Source: a virus
Length of the DNA stretch: 36,240 bases
Virus record (IMG/VR): IMGVR_UViG_3300025894_000001
Direction: 5' to 3' (one strand)
Positions 3,690 through 26,219 of the stretch are shown here, piece after piece. Position numbers and translations under genes: made by a program. Under the pieces are notes generated by a model. The model was not told the origin of the DNA, did no database searches, and saw nothing but the letters and a program-made list of their open reading frames with translations. Position 1 is the stretch's first letter, and every line of letters begins with the position of its first letter.

Positions 3690-5575
3690 TGAGAATGCCA
3701 CGTTTTCAATATTCGAGCAGTCCTTCAATGTCGGGCGCCTATTCAAGCCCGGTGTTACGAAGCGCGCCTACGTTACGCACTCCGGCATTACGAAACACAT
3801 CCAAATATTTGCGAGATCCTAGAGCCGGACAGCGCAATATGCAGCTCGAGGTTCAAGCTGAACTGGACAAAGCAAAACCATTTCAAGCTTTAGTCGCCGG
3901 GGCGGGTGAGATTGCCGAGACCTTTTTAAAGGCAGACATGAAAAGCAAGTTGACCGAAGCTGAACTCAATCTTCGGATTACGACTGAAGGATTGCTTGCC
4001 AACATGAAATCCATGCCGGTTGGTGCAGCTTCAACAACGATTGATGGCAAAACAGGCCAACCAGATACGAATTATCGTGCGGTTCACGAAACATCACTTG
4101 CAAGCTTTACCGATGAGTTTTCTCGCCACAGAGAAAAGTTATCCAAAACACTACCTCGGGCAGCAAAAGACCAATTTCTCGCCGGTACAGCTGCATATGT
4201 CGCATCAGCTGAAGCTCAAGCTCAAGCGATCAATCGAAAGCAGCACGTTGCCTATTTGCAAGGCACAGTTTTTAGTAATTTGAGAAAAGCTGAGACTCTT
4301 GCCGAAATCGATATTATTGCCGGCGGTGCTGATGCGAGATTGGTTTACGCGCAAGATGATTTATTGAAGTTAGTAGACGCTCGAAAACGCGAGTTAGCCA
4401 ATGACTACTTTGCGACCACAGTCATCGCAGAAAACACGCAGCTCGGATTAGAGAATCTTGAAAACGTTTTTGCAAATAACAATAGAGAATCTCAGCTTGA
4501 TGATGAAAACGGCGATACGATCCCAATGACAGGCGCTCAAATGAGACAGTTTGAATTTATGGGTCATTTAACCGCAGATGACAAACTTGCGTTCGACACA
4601 AAGATTCAAGCCAAGATTAAACGCTTACAGGCTGAAGACGAGCTTAGAAAAGAATCTAATAAGAACTCAATAATGGGCGAGATTTATAACAATCCTGATC
4701 CAAACGTTTACACCTCTGACGCCTTCACCGCAGCTGCCGCAAGTGGCGAAATTAATTTTGAAGATATTCCTGATCTTGATGCGATAGTTAAAGCGCAAAT
4801 TGTCGCAAGATCGCAAGCTGCTCCTGCAACCGATGTTTCTCTTCAGAATCATATTTTGGACAATATCGGTGATTTTGCTTATCGAACTGAAAGGTTGATG
4901 ACGATGCCTTTGGATCCGAATTTTGCAAAAGAGGCGCTTGAGAAAAGACGAAGATTTGATCAGGGTATTCCAGATTGGAAAGATAAGAACAACCCTGCCG
5001 GTAATAAAGGAGCAAGAGCAAACAGAATTTTCGAAAATGCGTTTTATCGCAAAGATGGTGGTTTTATGGATGCAATCTCAATCTTTTCGCCAGATAGAGT
5101 TGAGCAGCTAAACGACCGTTACTTTATCGCCGCGAAAGAGTTAGATGAGTATGCAAACAACGAGATAGATCTCGCGATGGCTGACTCGGAATACACGTTC
5201 GATGAAGCGTTCGATAACATCTATTTGAAAGCCGAGCAGTTAGCGGAAAAAGAACGTCAATATTCTCAAACCGTTAAACAAGAAAAAGGCGCATTTGATC
5301 TAGCGAAAGATGCCGGCTTCACTGGAAGCACAGGCCAATTTTCTCAATATAACACTTGGTCAAGAAACAATAATCAGTTTACTTTCGACGATGTTCTGCA
5401 AATGGATCCCGGCCCGGCTCGAACTGAAAAAGCAAAAACATTGCAAAGTTTTGGTTGGACTTTTGATGCAAAGTTTTTCGAGGAAAAGCTAGAAACTCAA
5501 ACAGCAGAGGAAAAGTTAAGCACCGTTGAAAAGATTTGGAATGCGGTGAACCCTTTTGCTCCAGAGGATGAATAG
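3689..5575 (+). CDS. Internal virion / ejection protein (gp15-like slot)
   Basis: The 628-aa product looks coiled-coil rich. The call rests on synteny between nozzle and fibre genes. Confidence 0.5.
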   Translation: MRMPRFQYSSSPSMSGAYSSPVLRSAPTLRTPALRNTSKYLRDPRAGQRNMQLEVQAELDKAKPFQALVAGAGEIAETFLKADMKSKLTEAELNLRITTEGLLANMKSMPVGAASTTIDGKTGQPDTNYRAVHETSLASFTDEFSRHREKLSKTLPRAAKDQFLAGTAAYVASAEAQAQAINRKQHVAYLQGTVFSNLRKAETLAEIDIIAGGADARLVYAQDDLLKLVDARKRELANDYFATTVIAENTQLGLENLENVFANNNRESQLDDENGDTIPMTGAQMRQFEFMGHLTADDKLAFDTKIQAKIKRLQAEDELRKESNKNSIMGEIYNNPDPNVYTSDAFTAAAASGEINFEDIPDLDAIVKAQIVARSQAAPATDVSLQNHILDNIGDFAYRTERLMTMPLDPNFAKEALEKRRRFDQGIPDWKDKNNPAGNKGARANRIFENAFYRKDGGFMDAISIFSPDRVEQLNDRYFIAAKELDEYANNEIDLAMADSEYTFDEAFDNIYLKAEQLAEKERQYSQTVKQEKGAFDLAKDAGFTGSTGQFSQYNTWSRNNNQFTFDDVLQMDPGPARTEKAKTLQSFGWTFDAKFFEEKLETQTAEEKLSTVEKIWNAVNPFAPEDE

Positions 5576-8299
5576 ATGAGTAATTGGACGCCACCAATGC
5601 TCACCGATCAGCAAATCAACGAACGGTTTGAAGCGCAAACAGAAGCTGAAAATCAATCAATGAGAGATTGGATTAACACGACCAACGACGAGAATTTCAA
5701 TACAACAGAAGATGATCTTCGCCAAAATCCACAGTGGATTCTCGCCAGTAGGGTTTTATACAACCAAAACAACGGCAAGAAGTTCTCTGGAACTGATCAA
5801 GAAGCAGCCGACTATGGCCTCGATCAAATGGGTGCATTCAATTACTCATTCTTTAATATGGATGCGCCGTGGGCTGAAGAAGATACAGTCGGTATGGTTG
5901 GCTACCTTTCAAGGATTCAAGAGTTTGATGATCGCGGCAAGCTTGCCTTCTTGCTGTTGATGAACACCTACGACGAGAAAGATGTCACTTGGGAAGGTGT
6001 CAAAAGAGGTTTTTCAAATGTTTTCCAAGATCCTACGACTTATGGCGGTATTACTACGCTCGCCAGTCTCGGCGCGAAATTTTCGGGACGGTCAGCTGTC
6101 AAAAGCGGAGTGAAGGCTTGGCTTGAACACGCAGCGCATGGCACTTTTTCCCGAACAGGCATGGCGATTGGCGCCTTTGAGGGTGGAAGCTATACCGCAG
6201 CCGATCAAGTTTATCGCGAAAGAATAGACGCAGAGCTTGGGGATCGAGAGGCTTTTAGCGATCTATCAGGGTGGCTATTGGAATCTGCACCTACAATCGT
6301 TTTGGGAACAACTATCGGCGCAGCTATCCCCGCAGCGGGAATGGCAGTCAATCGGCTTCGACCTCGACCCGATATTCCGGTTCCTGATCGACCTGATCTT
6401 ATTGTTGAGGAAGTAAACAAAAACGGCAAACTTCAACGAAATGTTCGAGTTGATGAAGCTGCATTTGATGTTGACGCAGAAAATTTTAACTTTCCTGATC
6501 TAGCACCAACTCTTGCTGACAATCACAGACTTATTGCACAAGACAGTCAGGCCCGAAATAAGAAAGGCTTTGGCGAGCAAAGCGAATTCTTCAATCCAAC
6601 ATTTGGGCATGAAGGGCGCCCGGTCTATAAGGCGATTCGAACTCAATCGCACAACCGGATTATTAACAAGGCTATCGAAAAATCTGGCGACAGCATTCCC
6701 GCTGAAGGTGAGAAAAAGGTCGCTGTCTTTTTAGGCGGCGGCAGCGGTGCCGGCAAAACAACTGGCTTTAAATCGGGAATTGAAAGCGGCGCAATCCCAG
6801 ATCGCCAATATGTGAACATCAACCCAGACGATATAAAAGAACAGCTTTCAGATTACAAGACAATCAAGCGCGAAGGAGACTATCGGGCAGCTATGCAAAC
6901 CCACGAAGAGTCTTCAGACGTTGGGGATCTTTTGCTTGAGCGCGCTGTAAATGACGGTCGAAACGTTTTGATTGACAAAACAATGGCAAATCCTGAGAAG
7001 AATTTGGCATTAATGGAGTTGTTGAGGTCAAAAGGCTACGAGATTCAGTTTATGGGGGTCTCAGTTGACGCAGGAACAGCTGCAATGCGTAACCTAGGGC
7101 GATTCTATAACTCAGGTCGCATCCCTTTCCTACAGGCAATTGGGAGGACTCATAAGGGATTTAACGCAAATACCCGAGCCTATCTTGAAGCTGCAGATCA
7201 AGGCGTCATTATGGATAATTCCGGCGGGTCTTTAGTGATTGCAGCGCGAAAAGGTGAAGACGGCTCAGTCGAAGTATGGGATCCGATGGTCTATAATATG
7301 ATCTTAGAAAGAGGTAACTTAAATGAAGAAGCAAAAACAATCCGAGAACTTCGTGGATCCTCGGTCACGAATGATAACCCCGGAGATTATGGCGAAAGCC
7401 CGCAAGGAAGTGGAAGCGGAGGAGCGCAAACGGAAGGGGCCGCCAGTGGTCTTTCTCCCGAACGACTAAGAGAGCAGCGAGCTGCTGACCTTGGTTTCAG
7501 TGATGAAACCTTCTTTCACGGATCGACTCGGGATTTCACTGAATTTAGCGATAAATTTGGCAATCCCGACAATCACTACGGTCTCGGTCATTACTTTACA
7601 ACGAGCCTCGAAGACGCATCCGACAACTACAGTGGCAGTGGCCCTGATTTAAACATCAGGCTCGAGACTGTCGCGGAAAGTGCCTTCCCCGATCTTGAAG
7701 GTAAAGACGGAATCGATGCAGCTAGAAAGCTGCTTGGCGTCGAAAATGACGGTGTTGTTTACCCAGTTAAGCTTCGCACAGATAAGGTTGTGCGCGTTGG
7801 CGATGATGATGCTTACACTCTTGATGGCGAAAGAGAAACTTTCTGGGAATTAGATCCTTCTGATCCAGATGAAGAAATCTTTGACCCATCCGGGGAGTTT
7901 ATGGATGTTCTTGAAGCAACCATCGAAGCTGCTGACCAGTGGGGCGTTCCAGATACTAATGAGCTGCAGGGAAAACTTTTAGAAGCAGCTATGGATCAGG
8001 AAGGCATGGGCGCTTCTGAGTTTGAAAAAATCTTGCGAGACCATATGGCAAACCTTGGTGCAGACGCATCCCCCGGAACAGTTGTTTCTCAGGTTTACCA
8101 TGATCTTGGATATGACGCTATAGATATGGACGCCGGCGTGTTTAAAAACATGGACGGTGTAGAAGGGCAGCGACACTTCATAATTTTTGATCCAACCAGA
8201 ATAAGATCTATCCACGCCGAGTTTGATAAAAACAAAATCGACAGCGCAAACATTTTATCGAGTGTAGATAATGGCAATCGAAAACGCAGATATTCTTAA
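5576..8299 (+). CDS. Large polyvalent virion protein with a hydrophobic N-terminal region, a zeta-toxin-like P-loop kinase segment and a possible ART-like C-terminal domain
   Basis: The Walker A motif GGGSGAGKT lies at 6734..6760. It is followed by NINPDDIK, THEESSDV, NVLIDKT, GYEIQFMGVSVD and RFYNSGRIP. The C-terminal part carries FFHGSTRDFTEF, GLGHYFTTS and HFIIFDPTRIRS. Confidence 0.6.
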   Translation: MSNWTPPMLTDQQINERFEAQTEAENQSMRDWINTTNDENFNTTEDDLRQNPQWILASRVLYNQNNGKKFSGTDQEAADYGLDQMGAFNYSFFNMDAPWAEEDTVGMVGYLSRIQEFDDRGKLAFLLLMNTYDEKDVTWEGVKRGFSNVFQDPTTYGGITTLASLGAKFSGRSAVKSGVKAWLEHAAHGTFSRTGMAIGAFEGGSYTAADQVYRERIDAELGDREAFSDLSGWLLESAPTIVLGTTIGAAIPAAGMAVNRLRPRPDIPVPDRPDLIVEEVNKNGKLQRNVRVDEAAFDVDAENFNFPDLAPTLADNHRLIAQDSQARNKKGFGEQSEFFNPTFGHEGRPVYKAIRTQSHNRIINKAIEKSGDSIPAEGEKKVAVFLGGGSGAGKTTGFKSGIESGAIPDRQYVNINPDDIKEQLSDYKTIKREGDYRAAMQTHEESSDVGDLLLERAVNDGRNVLIDKTMANPEKNLALMELLRSKGYEIQFMGVSVDAGTAAMRNLGRFYNSGRIPFLQAIGRTHKGFNANTRAYLEAADQGVIMDNSGGSLVIAARKGEDGSVEVWDPMVYNMILERGNLNEEAKTIRELRGSSVTNDNPGDYGESPQGSGSGGAQTEGAASGLSPERLREQRAADLGFSDETFFHGSTRDFTEFSDKFGNPDNHYGLGHYFTTSLEDASDNYSGSGPDLNIRLETVAESAFPDLEGKDGIDAARKLLGVENDGVVYPVKLRTDKVVRVGDDDAYTLDGERETFWELDPSDPDEEIFDPSGEFMDVLEATIEAADQWGVPDTNELQGKLLEAAMDQEGMGASEFEKILRDHMANLGADASPGTVVSQVYHDLGYDAIDMDAGVFKNMDGVEGQRHFIIFDPTRIRSIHAEFDKNKIDSANILSSVDNGNRKRRYS

Positions 8300-18170: not shown

Positions 18171-19334
18171 CTAAGCTCTTCGAGCGGTAAGACTGACCAC
18201 GTTACTGACAGCAGCTTCAGTTCTGGTTCTGGTTTGTTCCATCTTATCCATCTCGACCCATTCGTAGTCCTCGGGAACGTCGAGATACCGGAGAGTGGTT
18301 TCAAGCTTTGAATGCCCGGCCCATTTCATTGCCAGATGGATGGCAACGCCGTTGTTGACGCAATCGCTGATGAAGGTGTGCCTCAGTCCGTGAAGCGTTC
18401 CGCTCGATTTGATTCCGGCTGCTGACTTATCCACTTTAAAGACTTTCGACCAACGATCCTCCCGCCAATCAGGTAAAAGACGATCACCGGGGAGGTTAAG
18501 GGTTAGGATCTCAAAATAGGCCGCTAGAGCGTCTGAATTGAGCGGTATCGAACGAGCTTTGCCGGTCTTGGTATCCATCCCTTCTTCGAGATCGTGATCC
18601 ACTAGCACCCTTCTTTTATGGTTAGAGCCGATTATGTCTTGCTTTCGAAGGTTGGAAAGCTCTTTGCGGCGAAGCCCGGTGTTAGCGATGAATTTCCAAA
18701 AAGCAGCGTGGGCGGGGTTTACTTTATAAAGCTTGTCTAACTCGGCGGCGGTGAAGATCTTGATCTTTTTCTTGACGGTCTTTGAATTGGATGCGATCAC
18801 CAGTTCGCCGACCGGTGAGGTCTGACAAAGATTCCATCGGTTGCCTTCCTTCTTGCCACCGGTACGAGCTGCCCGGTAAAGCGAGGCTTTGATGTCCTTC
18901 CATTCGTCTTTCACGGTTTCTGGTGAGACCACCTTTAGGCGGTCGACTTGCCAAGCGTTGAACGCGGTATTCCAAAGATCAATCGTCGCAACATCATCTG
19001 CAATGGTTAGATTGCCGAAGTAGGGAAGCGCCGTTTTGCAGTGCCGTGTAAAGTGTTCGTGACCGGCTGCGCTGTAAACTGTTGCGCGCCATGTCAGAAG
19101 CTGCGGGAGAAATTCAGAATAGGTCATCACACGTTTCGGTCGAGCTGCCGGCTCGATAACAGCAATGCCGGATTTGGCAAGCTGCTCTTTTGCTTCCCAC
19201 TCTTTGCAAACTTCTTCAGCTTGTTTCTTGGTCATGCGTGAAGCTGACCCCAAATATTTTACTCTAGGCAGAAGGTTGGTTTTGAGCCACCAGTACCCTT
19301 TGCCTTTACGCTCGTCAATATAAACACTTGCCAT
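18171..19334 (-). CDS. int: Tyrosine recombinase (phage integrase)
   Basis: The 387-aa product carries the C-terminal catalytic signature HGLRHTF..W.GH....T..YL and an upstream R in LRRKEL. It lies adjacent to attP. Confidence 0.9.
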   Translation of the reverse strand: MASVYIDERKGKGYWWLKTNLLPRVKYLGSASRMTKKQAEEVCKEWEAKEQLAKSGIAVIEPAARPKRVMTYSEFLPQLLTWRATVYSAAGHEHFTRHCKTALPYFGNLTIADDVATIDLWNTAFNAWQVDRLKVVSPETVKDEWKDIKASLYRAARTGGKKEGNRWNLCQTSPVGELVIASNSKTVKKKIKIFTAAELDKLYKVNPAHAAFWKFIANTGLRRKELSNLRKQDIIGSNHKRRVLVDHDLEEGMDTKTGKARSIPLNSDALAAYFEILTLNLPGDRLLPDWREDRWSKVFKVDKSAAGIKSSGTLHGLRHTFISDCVNNGVAIHLAMKWAGHSKLETTLRYLDVPEDYEWVEMDKMEQTRTRTEAAVSNVVSLTARRA

Positions 19335-24107: not shown

Positions 24108-24815
24108 TTAAGCCGCTTTCTTCGCGGCGGTTTTGGTGACATTGCCTTTCACTTTGTCGGCAATGTGTTTGAGGGAGGGCTTCTCGAATGGATCGAGCTT
24201 GCCGCTGCGGTCTTTCGCGAGCCACTGACCGTCTTGCGACGATTGCAGCCAACGCTCGTGGACGCCTTCCTGATTCGGTATCACTCGAAGCGCAAGAACC
24301 AGATCAACGTAGTAGGGGAGTTGTGCAGATACCTGACGCCCCGGTGCGCCGGGGGTGTAGAGCATGGCGCCGGTCGAGTCATCTTTTTCGCGGTCGAGCT
24401 TTGCCGTGAACACGACATTGGTGGGAAGGTCACGAAAGGCTTTGATCAGTGCGATGGATTTGTTCGCCATCTCACCGTATGCCTTGCGCGGGTCTTTTGT
24501 GCCTTTAAGCTCGCTCTCGAGAATCCGCTCGCAAATCTCACTGATCGAATCCAGAGCGATCCAGTTGAACTCGCGGGGGTTTGCTTTAAGGTGTGCAAAG
24601 ACTTCGGTGATGCCTTCGAGTGAGGACACCTCAATCACGCTGACGTTTGTTGCGTCTTTGATCGACAGCAGCCCGGCTTCAGCTGAGATCAGCAGGGTCG
24701 GTTCGCCGGTGGTGCAAGTCAAACAAGTCTTGCCGGCCCCGGGGTATCCGTAGACGGTGGCTTTGATGCCTCGGTCTTTTGCAACTTCGGCGGGTGTTTT
24801 AAAATCTATCGCCAT
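24108..24815 (-). CDS. Sak4-type (AAA_24) RecA-like ATPase
   Basis: The Walker A motif is YGYPGAGKT. Overall length and the later WIALDS motif fit phage Sak4-like proteins. Confidence 0.75.
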   Translation of the reverse strand: MAIDFKTPAEVAKDRGIKATVYGYPGAGKTCLTCTTGEPTLLISAEAGLLSIKDATNVSVIEVSSLEGITEVFAHLKANPREFNWIALDSISEICERILESELKGTKDPRKAYGEMANKSIALIKAFRDLPTNVVFTAKLDREKDDSTGAMLYTPGAPGRQVSAQLPYYVDLVLALRVIPNQEGVHERWLQSSQDGQWLAKDRSGKLDPFEKPSLKHIADKVKGNVTKTAAKKAA

Positions 24816-24830
24816 TTCATTTCTCGGTTG

Positions 24831-24857
24831 TTTATAGGTTAGCCTATTCTAGTGCAA
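24831..24857 (-). promoter_or_regulatory. Putative early-left promoter with an ATAGG-N4-CCTAT operator
   Basis: On the minus strand it reads TTGCAC, 15 nt, then TATAAA, which is a short spacer. Operator ATAGGCTAACCTAT (24834..24847) lies between them. A related site, TAGGCAAACCTT, lies at 24869..24880. Confidence 0.4.
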
Positions 24858-24893
24858 CCTATGAAAAATAGGCAAACCTTCTTTAATAGGCAC

Positions 24894-24916
24894 AAAAAAC
24901 CGGCCCAAAGGCCGGT
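24894..24916 (-). terminator. Terminator after the repressor gene
   Basis: The stem is ACCGGCC/GGCCGGT with a 4-nt loop, followed by a T-run on the minus strand. Confidence 0.75.
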
Positions 24917-24939
24917 TTCTAATAGGTCAGGCTAGGGCG

Positions 24940-25293
24940 TCAGCTGCCGTTTCCGACCTTATCAAGCTCGGCAACCAAGCGCCTTGCATCCTCATTTGTG
25001 TTGCGGAAAGTGTCGATCAGGTCTTGTACTTCGATCCGTTGGGCGGGGGTCAGTCCCGACAATTGATCGGTGTCACTTGAGGTGCGTTGCACACCCTCGA
25101 ACAACCAAGACTCGGTCGTTTCCAAAACTTCTGCGAGCTTCTTTGAGTTTTCCCTCGAGATCGATTTGATCTCACCGGACTCCCAATGCTGCGCGGTGGG
25201 TTGTGACACGCCACAACGTTTTGCAAGCTCTGTTTTTGTCAGACCCAAAGCAAGTCGTTTTTCTTTGAGCCGCTCATGCCAAGTGGCGCTCAT
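24940..25293 (-). CDS. Short XRE/cI-like repressor without a peptidase domain
   Basis: The HTH reads LGLTKTELAKRCGVSQPTAQHWESG. The product is 117 aa if it starts at the ATG at 25293. Alternative starts at 25332 and 25368 are possible. Confidence 0.75.
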   Translation of the reverse strand: MSATWHERLKEKRLALGLTKTELAKRCGVSQPTAQHWESGEIKSISRENSKKLAEVLETTESWLFEGVQRTSSDTDQLSGLTPAQRIEVQDLIDTFRNTNEDARRLVAELDKVGNGS

Positions 25294-25407
25294 GTCGCAC
25301 CCCCGGTCATGCAGCTGTATAACTTGTCCCATCTTCTTGTACTCGATTTTGTGTTCATTTTTTCTCACGGTTTTTTTATAGCCGGAATTCCGAAACGGCT
25401 TTGTTGT

Positions 25408-25884
25408 TTACCCTGACTGCGAAAGCGTCCACCAATGTGGCGCGCCAAATCGGTCAAAAGTTTCATCAGAATATTCGTGCTGTTGCACGAGCATCTTAAG
25501 TTCGAGTGCCGCAAGCGGCGTCCATCCTTTCAATGCGCGAAGTTGCCAACAGCGTGACCATTGCAAATTAAAAAGTTGTGCGCGGTTTGTTTCTACTTGA
25601 AGTGCCGGTTGTGATTTTTCTAAACCAAAGAAAATTTCTTTCTGTTCGCGCTCGGTACGATGTCCAGCCCATCCGCTTTCAATATCCTCAGTCGTTGCGC
25701 GACCGACGGCGGTGGTGTTGCCTTTGGAACATCCAAGCGGAGCGGAGGGAGGGCAATGGATGTGGTGCCAAAATTCGGGCGGGAAAACCCCGCGTTTTTT
25801 GACGTGCCAATTTTTTTTGCTGATTGAAAGACCGGAAATTGTGAGGTAAATATTTTTCAGCGGTTTTTTGGTTAATTTATTCAT
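25408..25884 (-). CDS. Unknown 158-aa protein encoded between cro and the repressor gene
   Basis: The ORF is on the repressor strand, upstream of it. I recognised no family. It has a His/Cys patch, WHHIHCPPSAPLGC. An alternative ATG lies at 25926. Confidence 0.55.
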   Translation of the reverse strand: MNKLTKKPLKNIYLTISGLSISKKNWHVKKRGVFPPEFWHHIHCPPSAPLGCSKGNTTAVGRATTEDIESGWAGHRTEREQKEIFFGLEKSQPALQVETNRAQLFNLQWSRCWQLRALKGWTPLAALELKMLVQQHEYSDETFDRFGAPHWWTLSQSG

Positions 25885-25885
25885 G

Positions 25886-25960
25886 TAGGCAAGCCTAACA
25901 CATAATAGGTAAATGTTTGCAAACATTATTCAACTTGCATTTAGAAATAGGGTCGCCTAT
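25886..25960. promoter_or_regulatory. Operator cluster of the immunity switch
   Basis: The cluster contains TAGGCAAGCCTA (25886..25897), the perfect 16-bp palindrome AATGTTTGCAAACATT (25912..25927) and ATAGGGTCGCCTAT (25947..25960). Confidence 0.6.
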
Positions 25961-25963
25961 TAT
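25935..25963 (+). promoter_or_regulatory. Putative PR-like promoter for cro
   Basis: It reads TTGCAT, a 17-nt spacer, then TATTAT. An operator lies in the spacer. The cro ATG is only 7 nt after the -10. Confidence 0.6.
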
Positions 25964-25970
25964 CCGGCCT

Positions 25971-26162
25971 ATGAACGTGATCAAGACCGAAACCCCGAGC
26001 GCATCCGAAATCATTGATCGGATTGGTGGCACAGCTGCTGTTGCGGAGCTTTGCGAAGTCAAATCGCCGTCCGTCAGTGAATGGCGGCACAAGGGGATTC
26101 CAAAGGCCAGATTGCAGTTTTTGCGCCTTGCACGACCTGATGTCTTCAGAACAAACGCCTGA
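25971..26162 (+). CDS. Cro/YdaS-like HTH protein
   Basis: The 63-aa product contains GGTAAVAELCEVKSPSVSEWRHKGIPKARL. It is divergent from the repressor gene. Confidence 0.7.
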   Translation: MNVIKTETPSASEIIDRIGGTAAVAELCEVKSPSVSEWRHKGIPKARLQFLRLARPDVFRTNA

Positions 26163-26193: not shown

Positions 26194-26219
26194 CCCGCCC
26201 TTCGGGGCGGGATTTTTTT
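26194..26219 (+). terminator. Rho-independent terminator directly after cro
   Basis: The stem is CCCGCCC/GGGCGGG with a TTCG loop, then A and T7. Confidence 0.75.

Follow-up and report, generated by a model that had tools for sequence, protein, structure and literature searches.

An orphan, hypervariable gene lying upstream of a temperate phage's repressor gene: a candidate accessory first cistron of the repressor operon

The window analysed here is a 36,240-bp stretch of viral DNA (IMG/VR record IMGVR_UViG_3300025894_000001), and the feature under study is an open reading frame (ORF) at 25408-25884 on the minus strand, named X, which lies in the immunity region between a cro-like gene and the repressor gene. 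The comparison of X with its relatives demonstrated that X is a genuine protein-coding gene under purifying selection, and that it is an accessory gene whose alleles are swapped as a cassette, independently of the type of repressor. The reading that we favour, with a probability of ca. 45%, is that X would be the accessory first cistron of an autoregulated repressor operon and encode a soluble, tryptophan-rich protein acting in phage-phage or phage-host conflict. This reading is built by analogy with accessory genes on the repressor transcripts of other phages.

Results

X is a protein-coding gene of an orphan family

The original prediction had described X as an ORF of 158 amino acids (aa) belonging to no nameable family, and this description stood, since X is coding and conserved in relatives. 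We found 49 homologues with 40-82% identity, while a profile search gave 64 clusters at 90% identity; when 1.84 billion cluster representatives were searched exhaustively with a profile, only 20 clusters were obtained. The relatives (ca. 60) all come from metagenomes, have a conserved length and extend down to ca. 20% identity; those samples that could be placed are coastal marine, as inferred from the sample names. Between X and its counterpart in a near-identical prophage copy (L034; related loci are designated by L and a number), there were seven synonymous differences and one nonsynonymous difference (dN/dS, ca. 0.04).

The probability that X is a spurious ORF or a non-coding spacer, with the repressor translated from a far-upstream start, is negligible. 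It has in its favour that X is not preceded by a Shine-Dalgarno sequence in the window, and it is already refuted by the conservation of length among the ca. 60 homologues and by the dN/dS value. Furthermore, X and the repressor have distinct ORFs in all loci, and the repressor frame of L030 contains a stop codon three codons before the MGQ start. A far-upstream start had been raised in the original prediction; the GTG concerned is ruled out by this stop codon because it closes the frame.

X had no match in Pfam, PHROGs, PADLOC or NCBIfam, and none of the 60 family members matched Pfam at E ≤ 10. Nothing was obtained in a sequence profile search of PDB with X, in tblastn of X or megablast of 16 kb of the window against 50,697 GenBank phages, in a search of the whole window against Rfam (nothing for X) or in a pattern scan of GTDB genomes for X. 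Four of the 20 clusters (P0052, P0056, P0061 and P0063), large proteins showing many matches over one short stretch of the X profile, were rejected as spurious; P0052, P0056 and P0063 are IQ-motif repeat proteins that matched via IxxG[FW]xGHxTR[KE]xMK, which was judged to be a short-motif coincidence.

X is exchanged as an accessory cassette

An X-family hidden Markov model matched in 9 of the 53 IMG/VR loci that carry a cro homologue. In at least 35 of the loci without X, all cro-related phage contigs, the repressor gene is directly divergent from cro; the placement of a gene of no known family between cro and the repressor gene, seen as atypical in the original prediction, is indeed so.

The divergence of X is restricted to its own ORF. 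Between L135 and L136, the flanks share 86-100% nucleotide identity and the X ORF 40-73%, with the breakpoints at the ORF ends, and between the window and L030 the identity is 73-81% in the repressor gene and 36-50% in X. The X alleles are assembled, in mosaic fashion, from modules (N-terminal, middle and C-terminal) that exist in alternative versions. Across 78 pairs, the identities of X and of the repressor were uncorrelated (Spearman 0.16, P = 0.16), as is illustrated by pairs with 95% identity in the repressor and 46% in X, 85% in the repressor and 24% in X, and 71% in X and 19% in the repressor. Since the two identities are uncorrelated, the option that X is a partner controlling the repressor, which the original prediction had put on an equal footing with a lysogeny-expressed function, is disfavoured.

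X is linked to repressor genes of many types

Of 14 distinct contexts, 12, distributed over at least five phage backbones, had a repressor-type helix-turn-helix (HTH) gene immediately downstream of X and on the same strand as X. Six of the downstream repressors are short XRE types (window, L007, L030, L142, L026/L184 and L032), and six are cI types having HTH and Peptidase_S24 domains (L001, L004/L020, L014, L015, L018 and L019). The linkage holds even for X homologues of ca. 20-25% identity. The distance from X to the repressor gene can be very short, at 7 nt (L014) or 15 nt (L001); judging by these gaps and by the placement of the operator-like sites described below, X would be co-transcribed with the repressor gene. 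We also considered whether X is tied to the missing cleavage domain of the window repressor, and this idea was unsupported, because half of the downstream repressor types are full cI proteins with HTH and Peptidase_S24 domains.

In the S24-cI backbone of L001, X is preceded by four direct copies of ACTTGACA (5860-5975) and by a strong Shine-Dalgarno sequence. These repeats probably serve as operators, or as overlapping -35 elements, in an immunity system of another type. The X allele of L018 (5920-6351), which precedes an intact S24 cI gene, is interrupted in frame by a stop at codon 11; it may be a pseudogene, contain a sequencing error or use a downstream start. X proteins with a C-terminal extension (177-185 aa) are encoded in L028, L029, L185 and L186 (ca. 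5001-6362), where X shares 16 nt with a 154-aa ORF that matches PAS_9 weakly (E = 9e-4), the pair being convergent with an HTH_3 gene.

The order of X and an XRE gene resembles that of HigBA-like toxin-antitoxin pairs with an XRE antitoxin. No match of X to a toxin family was found, and, whereas HigBA-like pairs have a dedicated XRE antitoxin, the partner here is the master repressor or an S24 cI, which assorts independently of X.

Properties of the X protein

X is predicted to be soluble and hydrophilic, with eight tryptophans, an isoelectric point (pI) of 9.5 and no transmembrane segment. Among alleles the pI ranges from 5.3 to 10.9, and the distant members are strongly basic (ca. 10-10.9) and rich in tryptophan and arginine. 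The conserved core comprises approximately residues 50-80 and 105-125, and the columns W39, T64, G71, G74, W113, R116, G120, W121 and P149 were invariant in alignment A2. No histidine or cysteine is conserved across the wider family. The WHHIHCPPS patch, which the original prediction had singled out, is confined to one N-terminal allele type, and a metal site in it was rejected since the patch is not conserved. Likewise, the HExxH zinc-peptidase domain of ImmA/IrrE (COG2856) was not found, there being no Pfam match in the 60 members and no conserved His/Glu motif.

Structure prediction and a Foldseek search, both proposed along with the original prediction, were carried out with limited return. 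AlphaFold2 models built with 35 and then 60 sequences were unusable (pLDDT, 47.6 and 53.1, respectively; pTM, 0.18-0.19).

The basic, Trp/Arg-rich composition of the distant members would fit nucleic-acid binding, and in L026 and L184 the genes are arranged in the order X, HTH, DUF4224 and integrase. These facts are compatible with another role, of benefit to the lysogen or of a housekeeping kind, such as a modulator of host physiology or a nucleic-acid-binding factor for prophage maintenance or excision, in which case the variability of X would reflect ordinary mosaicism. We regard this as rather improbable: divergence limited to the X ORF between phages that are otherwise 86-100% identical exceeds background mosaicism, and the wide pI range of the alleles is at odds with it.

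Operator-like sites flank the X-repressor unit

The features of the immunity region are listed in Table 1. X (477 bp) and a 75-nt gap separate the right operator (OR)-like region from the repressor gene, and a gap of 86 nt parts X from the cro-like gene. The X-repressor unit is bounded by the OR-like region and by a region resembling the left operator and leftward early promoter (OL/PL), as is cI in lambda. As in a lambda-type immunity region, a cro-like gene is divergent from a repressor-strand operon with palindromic sites in the gap between them (25886 and 25948), and a second cluster of sites lies at the predicted leftward early promoter (24835-24934). The repressor gene of a lambda-type region is directly beside OR, unlike the one here.

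Table 1 Features of the immunity region of the window.
Feature	Coordinates	Strand	Remarks
Sak4-like AAA_24 gene	24108-24815	-	Early-left operon
OL/PL-like control region	24816-24939	-	Between repressor stop and start codon of Sak4-like gene; operator-like sites and promoter-like hexamers
Intrinsic-terminator-like hairpin	24889-24920	-	11-bp stem and U-run; predicted end of X-repressor transcript
Short XRE (HTH_3) phage repressor	24940-25332	-	130 aa from MGQ (117 aa if ATG 25293); Pfam and PHROG
Upstream ORF (uORF), 22 aa	25290-25358	-	Other frame than repressor; after GAGA/GGAG motif; common to five short-XRE relatives
X, orphan protein, 158 aa	25408-25884	-	Predicted promoter-proximal cistron of repressor operon
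OR-like divergent control region	25885-25970		Two exact operator-like sites, half-sites and 16-bp palindrome
cro-like small HTH protein, 63 aa	25971-26162	+	First gene of rightward early operon

The sequence TAGGNNNNCCTA occurs exactly three times in the window (24835-24846, 25886-25897 and 25948-25959), compared to a chance expectation of 0.14, and three or more copies were seen in 0 of 100 shuffles. The exact TAGGN4CCTA sites are confined to two regulatory gaps, one upstream of X and the other downstream of the repressor gene. Three of the four one-mismatch copies of TAGGNNNNCCTA in the window are in the left-hand gap (24850-24861, 24869-24880 and 24923-24934); the one at 24869 is TAGGCAAACCTT. 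The three TAGG-N4-CCTA sites and the near-copy at 24869 reported in the original prediction were, thus, confirmed. ATAGG half-sites are likewise concentrated, 10 of the 40 in the window falling within two gaps of ca. 100 nt (24834-24926 and 25905-25972), and those in the OR-like region are at 25905-25909 and 25968-25972. The perfect 16-bp palindrome AATGTTTGCAAACATT, also described earlier, is present at 25912-25927. It is not present in L030, whose repressor is 86% identical to that of the window, and was therefore rejected as a conserved operator.

The left-hand site cluster overlaps a promoter-like TTGCCT-18-TAGAAT on the minus strand (24875-24846). The PL hexamers and the ATAG(G)N4CCTAT sites of the window recur in L030. 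On the other side of the unit, the exact operator-like site at 25886-25897 abuts X, the ATG of which is only 1 nt beyond it. This site is shared by L030, where it reads TTAGGCTTGCCTTA, and in L007 (repressor 51% identical) an operator-like site likewise abuts the ATG of X. The terminator-like hairpin downstream of the repressor gene had a predicted folding energy of -21.2 kcal/mol (z = -2.84) and is kept in L030 and L007. In a sigma-70 scan, neither OR nor the stretch from X to the repressor gene showed a consensus promoter. In the gap between the two genes (25333-25407), there was neither an operator-like site with one mismatch or fewer nor a promoter-like match, although the scan may miss a weak promoter. 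PR-type and PRM-type promoters would be positioned within OR.

This layout invites comparison with phage P1, whose immC operon has the order imcA-imcB-coi-c1 (PMC8546580) and contains a promoter, Pc1, and a bivalent operator, Oc1ab, between coi and c1 (AF234172 annotation). Like coi, X precedes the repressor gene on the same strand and would be under a repressor-controlled promoter. The main rival explanation is, accordingly, that X is a switch modulator similar to the P1 antirepressor Coi or the corepressor Lxc, which would be produced on infection from the operon that also yields the repressor and, by attaching to the repressor or to its XRE HTH domain, would set the ratio of lysis to lysogeny or allow induction. 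The site abutting the start of X could let the repressor shut X off in lysogens, an XRE-type HTH domain is common to all of the downstream partners, and the linkage to a repressor gene is kept down to ca. 20% identity of X. Nevertheless, we consider a modulator unlikely. Coi binds and inactivates its cognate repressor specifically, while the indirect test for co-variation of X and the repressor was negative; very different X alleles occur on the same repressor, and the partners include both S24 and non-S24 repressors. In addition, no equivalent of Pc1 and Oc1ab was found between X and the repressor gene, and most relatives of the switch work without X. Coi (69 aa) is unrelated to X, homology between the two being rejected on an hhalign probability of 0.2%.

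Operators at the promoter of a small gene followed by an HTH gene also recall acr-aca operons, where an HTH autoregulator is preceded by a small orphan gene of variable sequence and the promoter carries inverted repeats. X matches this layout, and cassette-like turnover is typical of counter-defence genes. X could therefore be an anti-defence protein (Acr-like or similar) made at once upon infection and in the prophage, with the HTH protein acting in the manner of Aca to shut the promoter. We judge this to be quite improbable, since the HTH protein is the master repressor, with sites also at the PL-like promoter, and in other loci an S24 cI. It is no recognised Aca (Aca2_YdiL, E = 0.09), and the upstream gene always belongs to one family, as opposed to the mixed cargo of acr loci.

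The repressor, the cro-like protein and the uORF

The window repressor matched HTH_3 of Pfam (E = 1.4e-15) and 'transcriptional repressor' of PHROG. Self-cleaving repressors of the LexA/cI type have a C-terminal Peptidase_S24 domain, which was present in L001, L004, L014, L015, L018 and L019 and was not found by Pfam in the window repressor. The short XRE repressor of ca. 117 aa proposed in the original prediction thus stands as regards the missing domain and is to be revised in length: ATG 25332 (130 aa, MGQVIQL...) is the more likely start than ATG 25293 (117 aa). At the protein level, the MGQ N-terminal extension is retained in four diverged relatives, and L007 and L142 differ there by five synonymous changes.

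A uORF is located at 25290-25358, behind a conserved GGAG/GAGA motif, and its TGA stop overlaps ATG 25293 (ATGA), the alternative 'MS.TW' start of the repressor. A uORF of 22-27 aa was present in all five short-XRE relatives (window, L030, L007, L021 and L142), the peptide being poorly conserved. It may be a leader or a translational-coupling element that yields two repressor isoforms.

The cro-like protein matched P22_Cro (E = 5.5e-5) and YdaS (E = 3.8e-4) in Pfam, both under the curated cut-off, and phrog_8008 (E = 3.4e-16). It also matched the NCBIfam 'carph-isopro domain' model (E = 6e-8), again under the curated cut-off. Phages whose repressors share only 51% identity with that of the window have a cro-like protein of 79-80% identity. 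The terminator scan placed a terminator-like hairpin 3' of the cro-like gene (26194-26211), and the genes that follow encode a CHC2 zinc-ribbon primase-like protein and an AAA_25 helicase.

The phage and its host

The window represents a temperate tailed phage of roughly 36-40 kb in its unintegrated, circularly permuted form, with a tyrosine integrase gene at 18171-19334. An integrated copy was found on the metagenomic contig ERZ27295539 k141_593783 (92,680 bp; L034 and L036 11306-20609). The integrase is at one end of this contig (L034), and on the other side tail genes are followed by tRNA-Cys (L036 13292-13365) and a host ccmABCDEFGH operon. Lysogeny is therefore real for this phage. The host CcmF was at most ca. 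60% identical to proteins from gamma- and betaproteobacterial metagenome-assembled genomes, and at this low identity the prophage host is best described as probably gammaproteobacterium-like.

The tail-gene block contains a 907-aa ORF (5576-8299, plus strand), and the identical protein is encoded in L035-L040. It matched Zeta_toxin and AAA_33 of Pfam and, faintly, ART-PolyVal, and resembles a polyvalent protein associated with the virion that carries a zeta-toxin-like kinase domain.

Discussion

X is inserted between OR-type operators and the repressor gene, and would thus be the first cistron of a PRM-type lysogenic operon having operators on both sides and a terminator at its end. Under this arrangement, X would be made whenever the repressor is made, that is, during infection and in the lysogen, and its dose would be set by autoregulation of the repressor. 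Expression of X in lysogens is accordingly expected. X keeps its linkage to repressor genes of any type and its alleles assort freely among them; therefore, selection appears to act on the expression pattern of the repressor operon rather than on a specific partnership of X with the repressor. The turnover of the cassette, which is confined to the ORF, suggests a gene at a conflict interface, where X might exclude or abort the infection of other phages or act in another way on a variable phage or host target. By analogy with the systems discussed below, a role in exclusion or defence is plausible, and among the options of the original prediction, a lysogeny-expressed exclusion or defence function would be the best-fitting one.

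Exclusion genes that are co-transcribed with the repressor gene from the autoregulated lysogenic promoter, between OL and OR, are known from lambda (cI-rexA-rexB) and HK022 (cI-nun). These genes are downstream of cI, whereas X is promoter-proximal, and there is no homology between them and X; moreover, RexB of lambda is a membrane protein, while X is predicted to be soluble. X shares with rexAB, nun and olg1 their accessory status among phages that have the same switch. The closest architectural precedent is the B3-like Pseudomonas phage Fc02, in which olg1 and olg2 precede repc on the same strand, much as X precedes its repressor gene. In the lysogen, they are transcribed together with repc, the promoter being located ahead of the first ORF, and Olg1 acts to exclude other phages (PMC9936078). 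Fc02 is, however, an unrelated Mu-like phage with overlapping genes, and no sequence relationship of X to its genes was found.

Several observations weigh against this reading of X as an exclusion or defence gene of the repressor operon. First, X shows no homology to the known defence and exclusion proteins in PADLOC, PHROGs, Pfam and NCBIfam; in PADLOC-DB, the models of 0 defence-protein families matched X at E ≤ 1. Second, there is no usable structure, and Foldseek searches of the models against PDB and BFVD gave no match below E = 1. Third, the known exclusion genes in repressor operons are usually located downstream of the repressor gene, and X is upstream. Fourth, X of the window lacks a Shine-Dalgarno sequence, and an operator-like site adjoins its ATG, and therefore X may be poorly translated or repressed in lysogens; the X allele of L030 has AAGGAG-6-ATG. 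Finally, two of the 14 contexts depart from the rule: X of L024 is followed by a 105-aa ORF of no known function and a PDDEXK gene, with no repressor gene, and X and the HTH gene converge in the L028/L185 backbone, though X is still inside the immunity region. Co-transcription is not obligatory because of these two arrangements.

A broader proposal is that X represents a new family of single-protein cytoplasmic effectors that are promoter-proximal in the repressor operons of marine temperate phages, with a dose locked to repressor autoregulation and with modules setting the target specificity. Such effectors might be either an exclusion or abortive-infection system or a generic modulator of XRE repressors across repressor types. 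We put this proposal forward as a speculation that is somewhat doubtful as a whole.

Accessory genes carried on repressor transcripts, rexAB, nun and olg1 among them, are a classic means by which prophages encode immunity to other phages. To our knowledge, almost all such examples are from enteric or Pseudomonas phages. What appears to be new here is an accessory gene of a repressor operon that is probably promoter-proximal and comes from an orphan, hypervariable family, as suggested by its position and its evolution. In uncultured marine temperate phages, this family follows an unusually strict positional rule, upstream of at least 12 repressor types. With this positional rule and the ORF-confined turnover, X is a candidate that can be tested for a new function in exclusion, defence or modulation of the switch, and 'first gene of the repressor operon' is suggested as a rule by which similar genes may be searched for in metagenomes.

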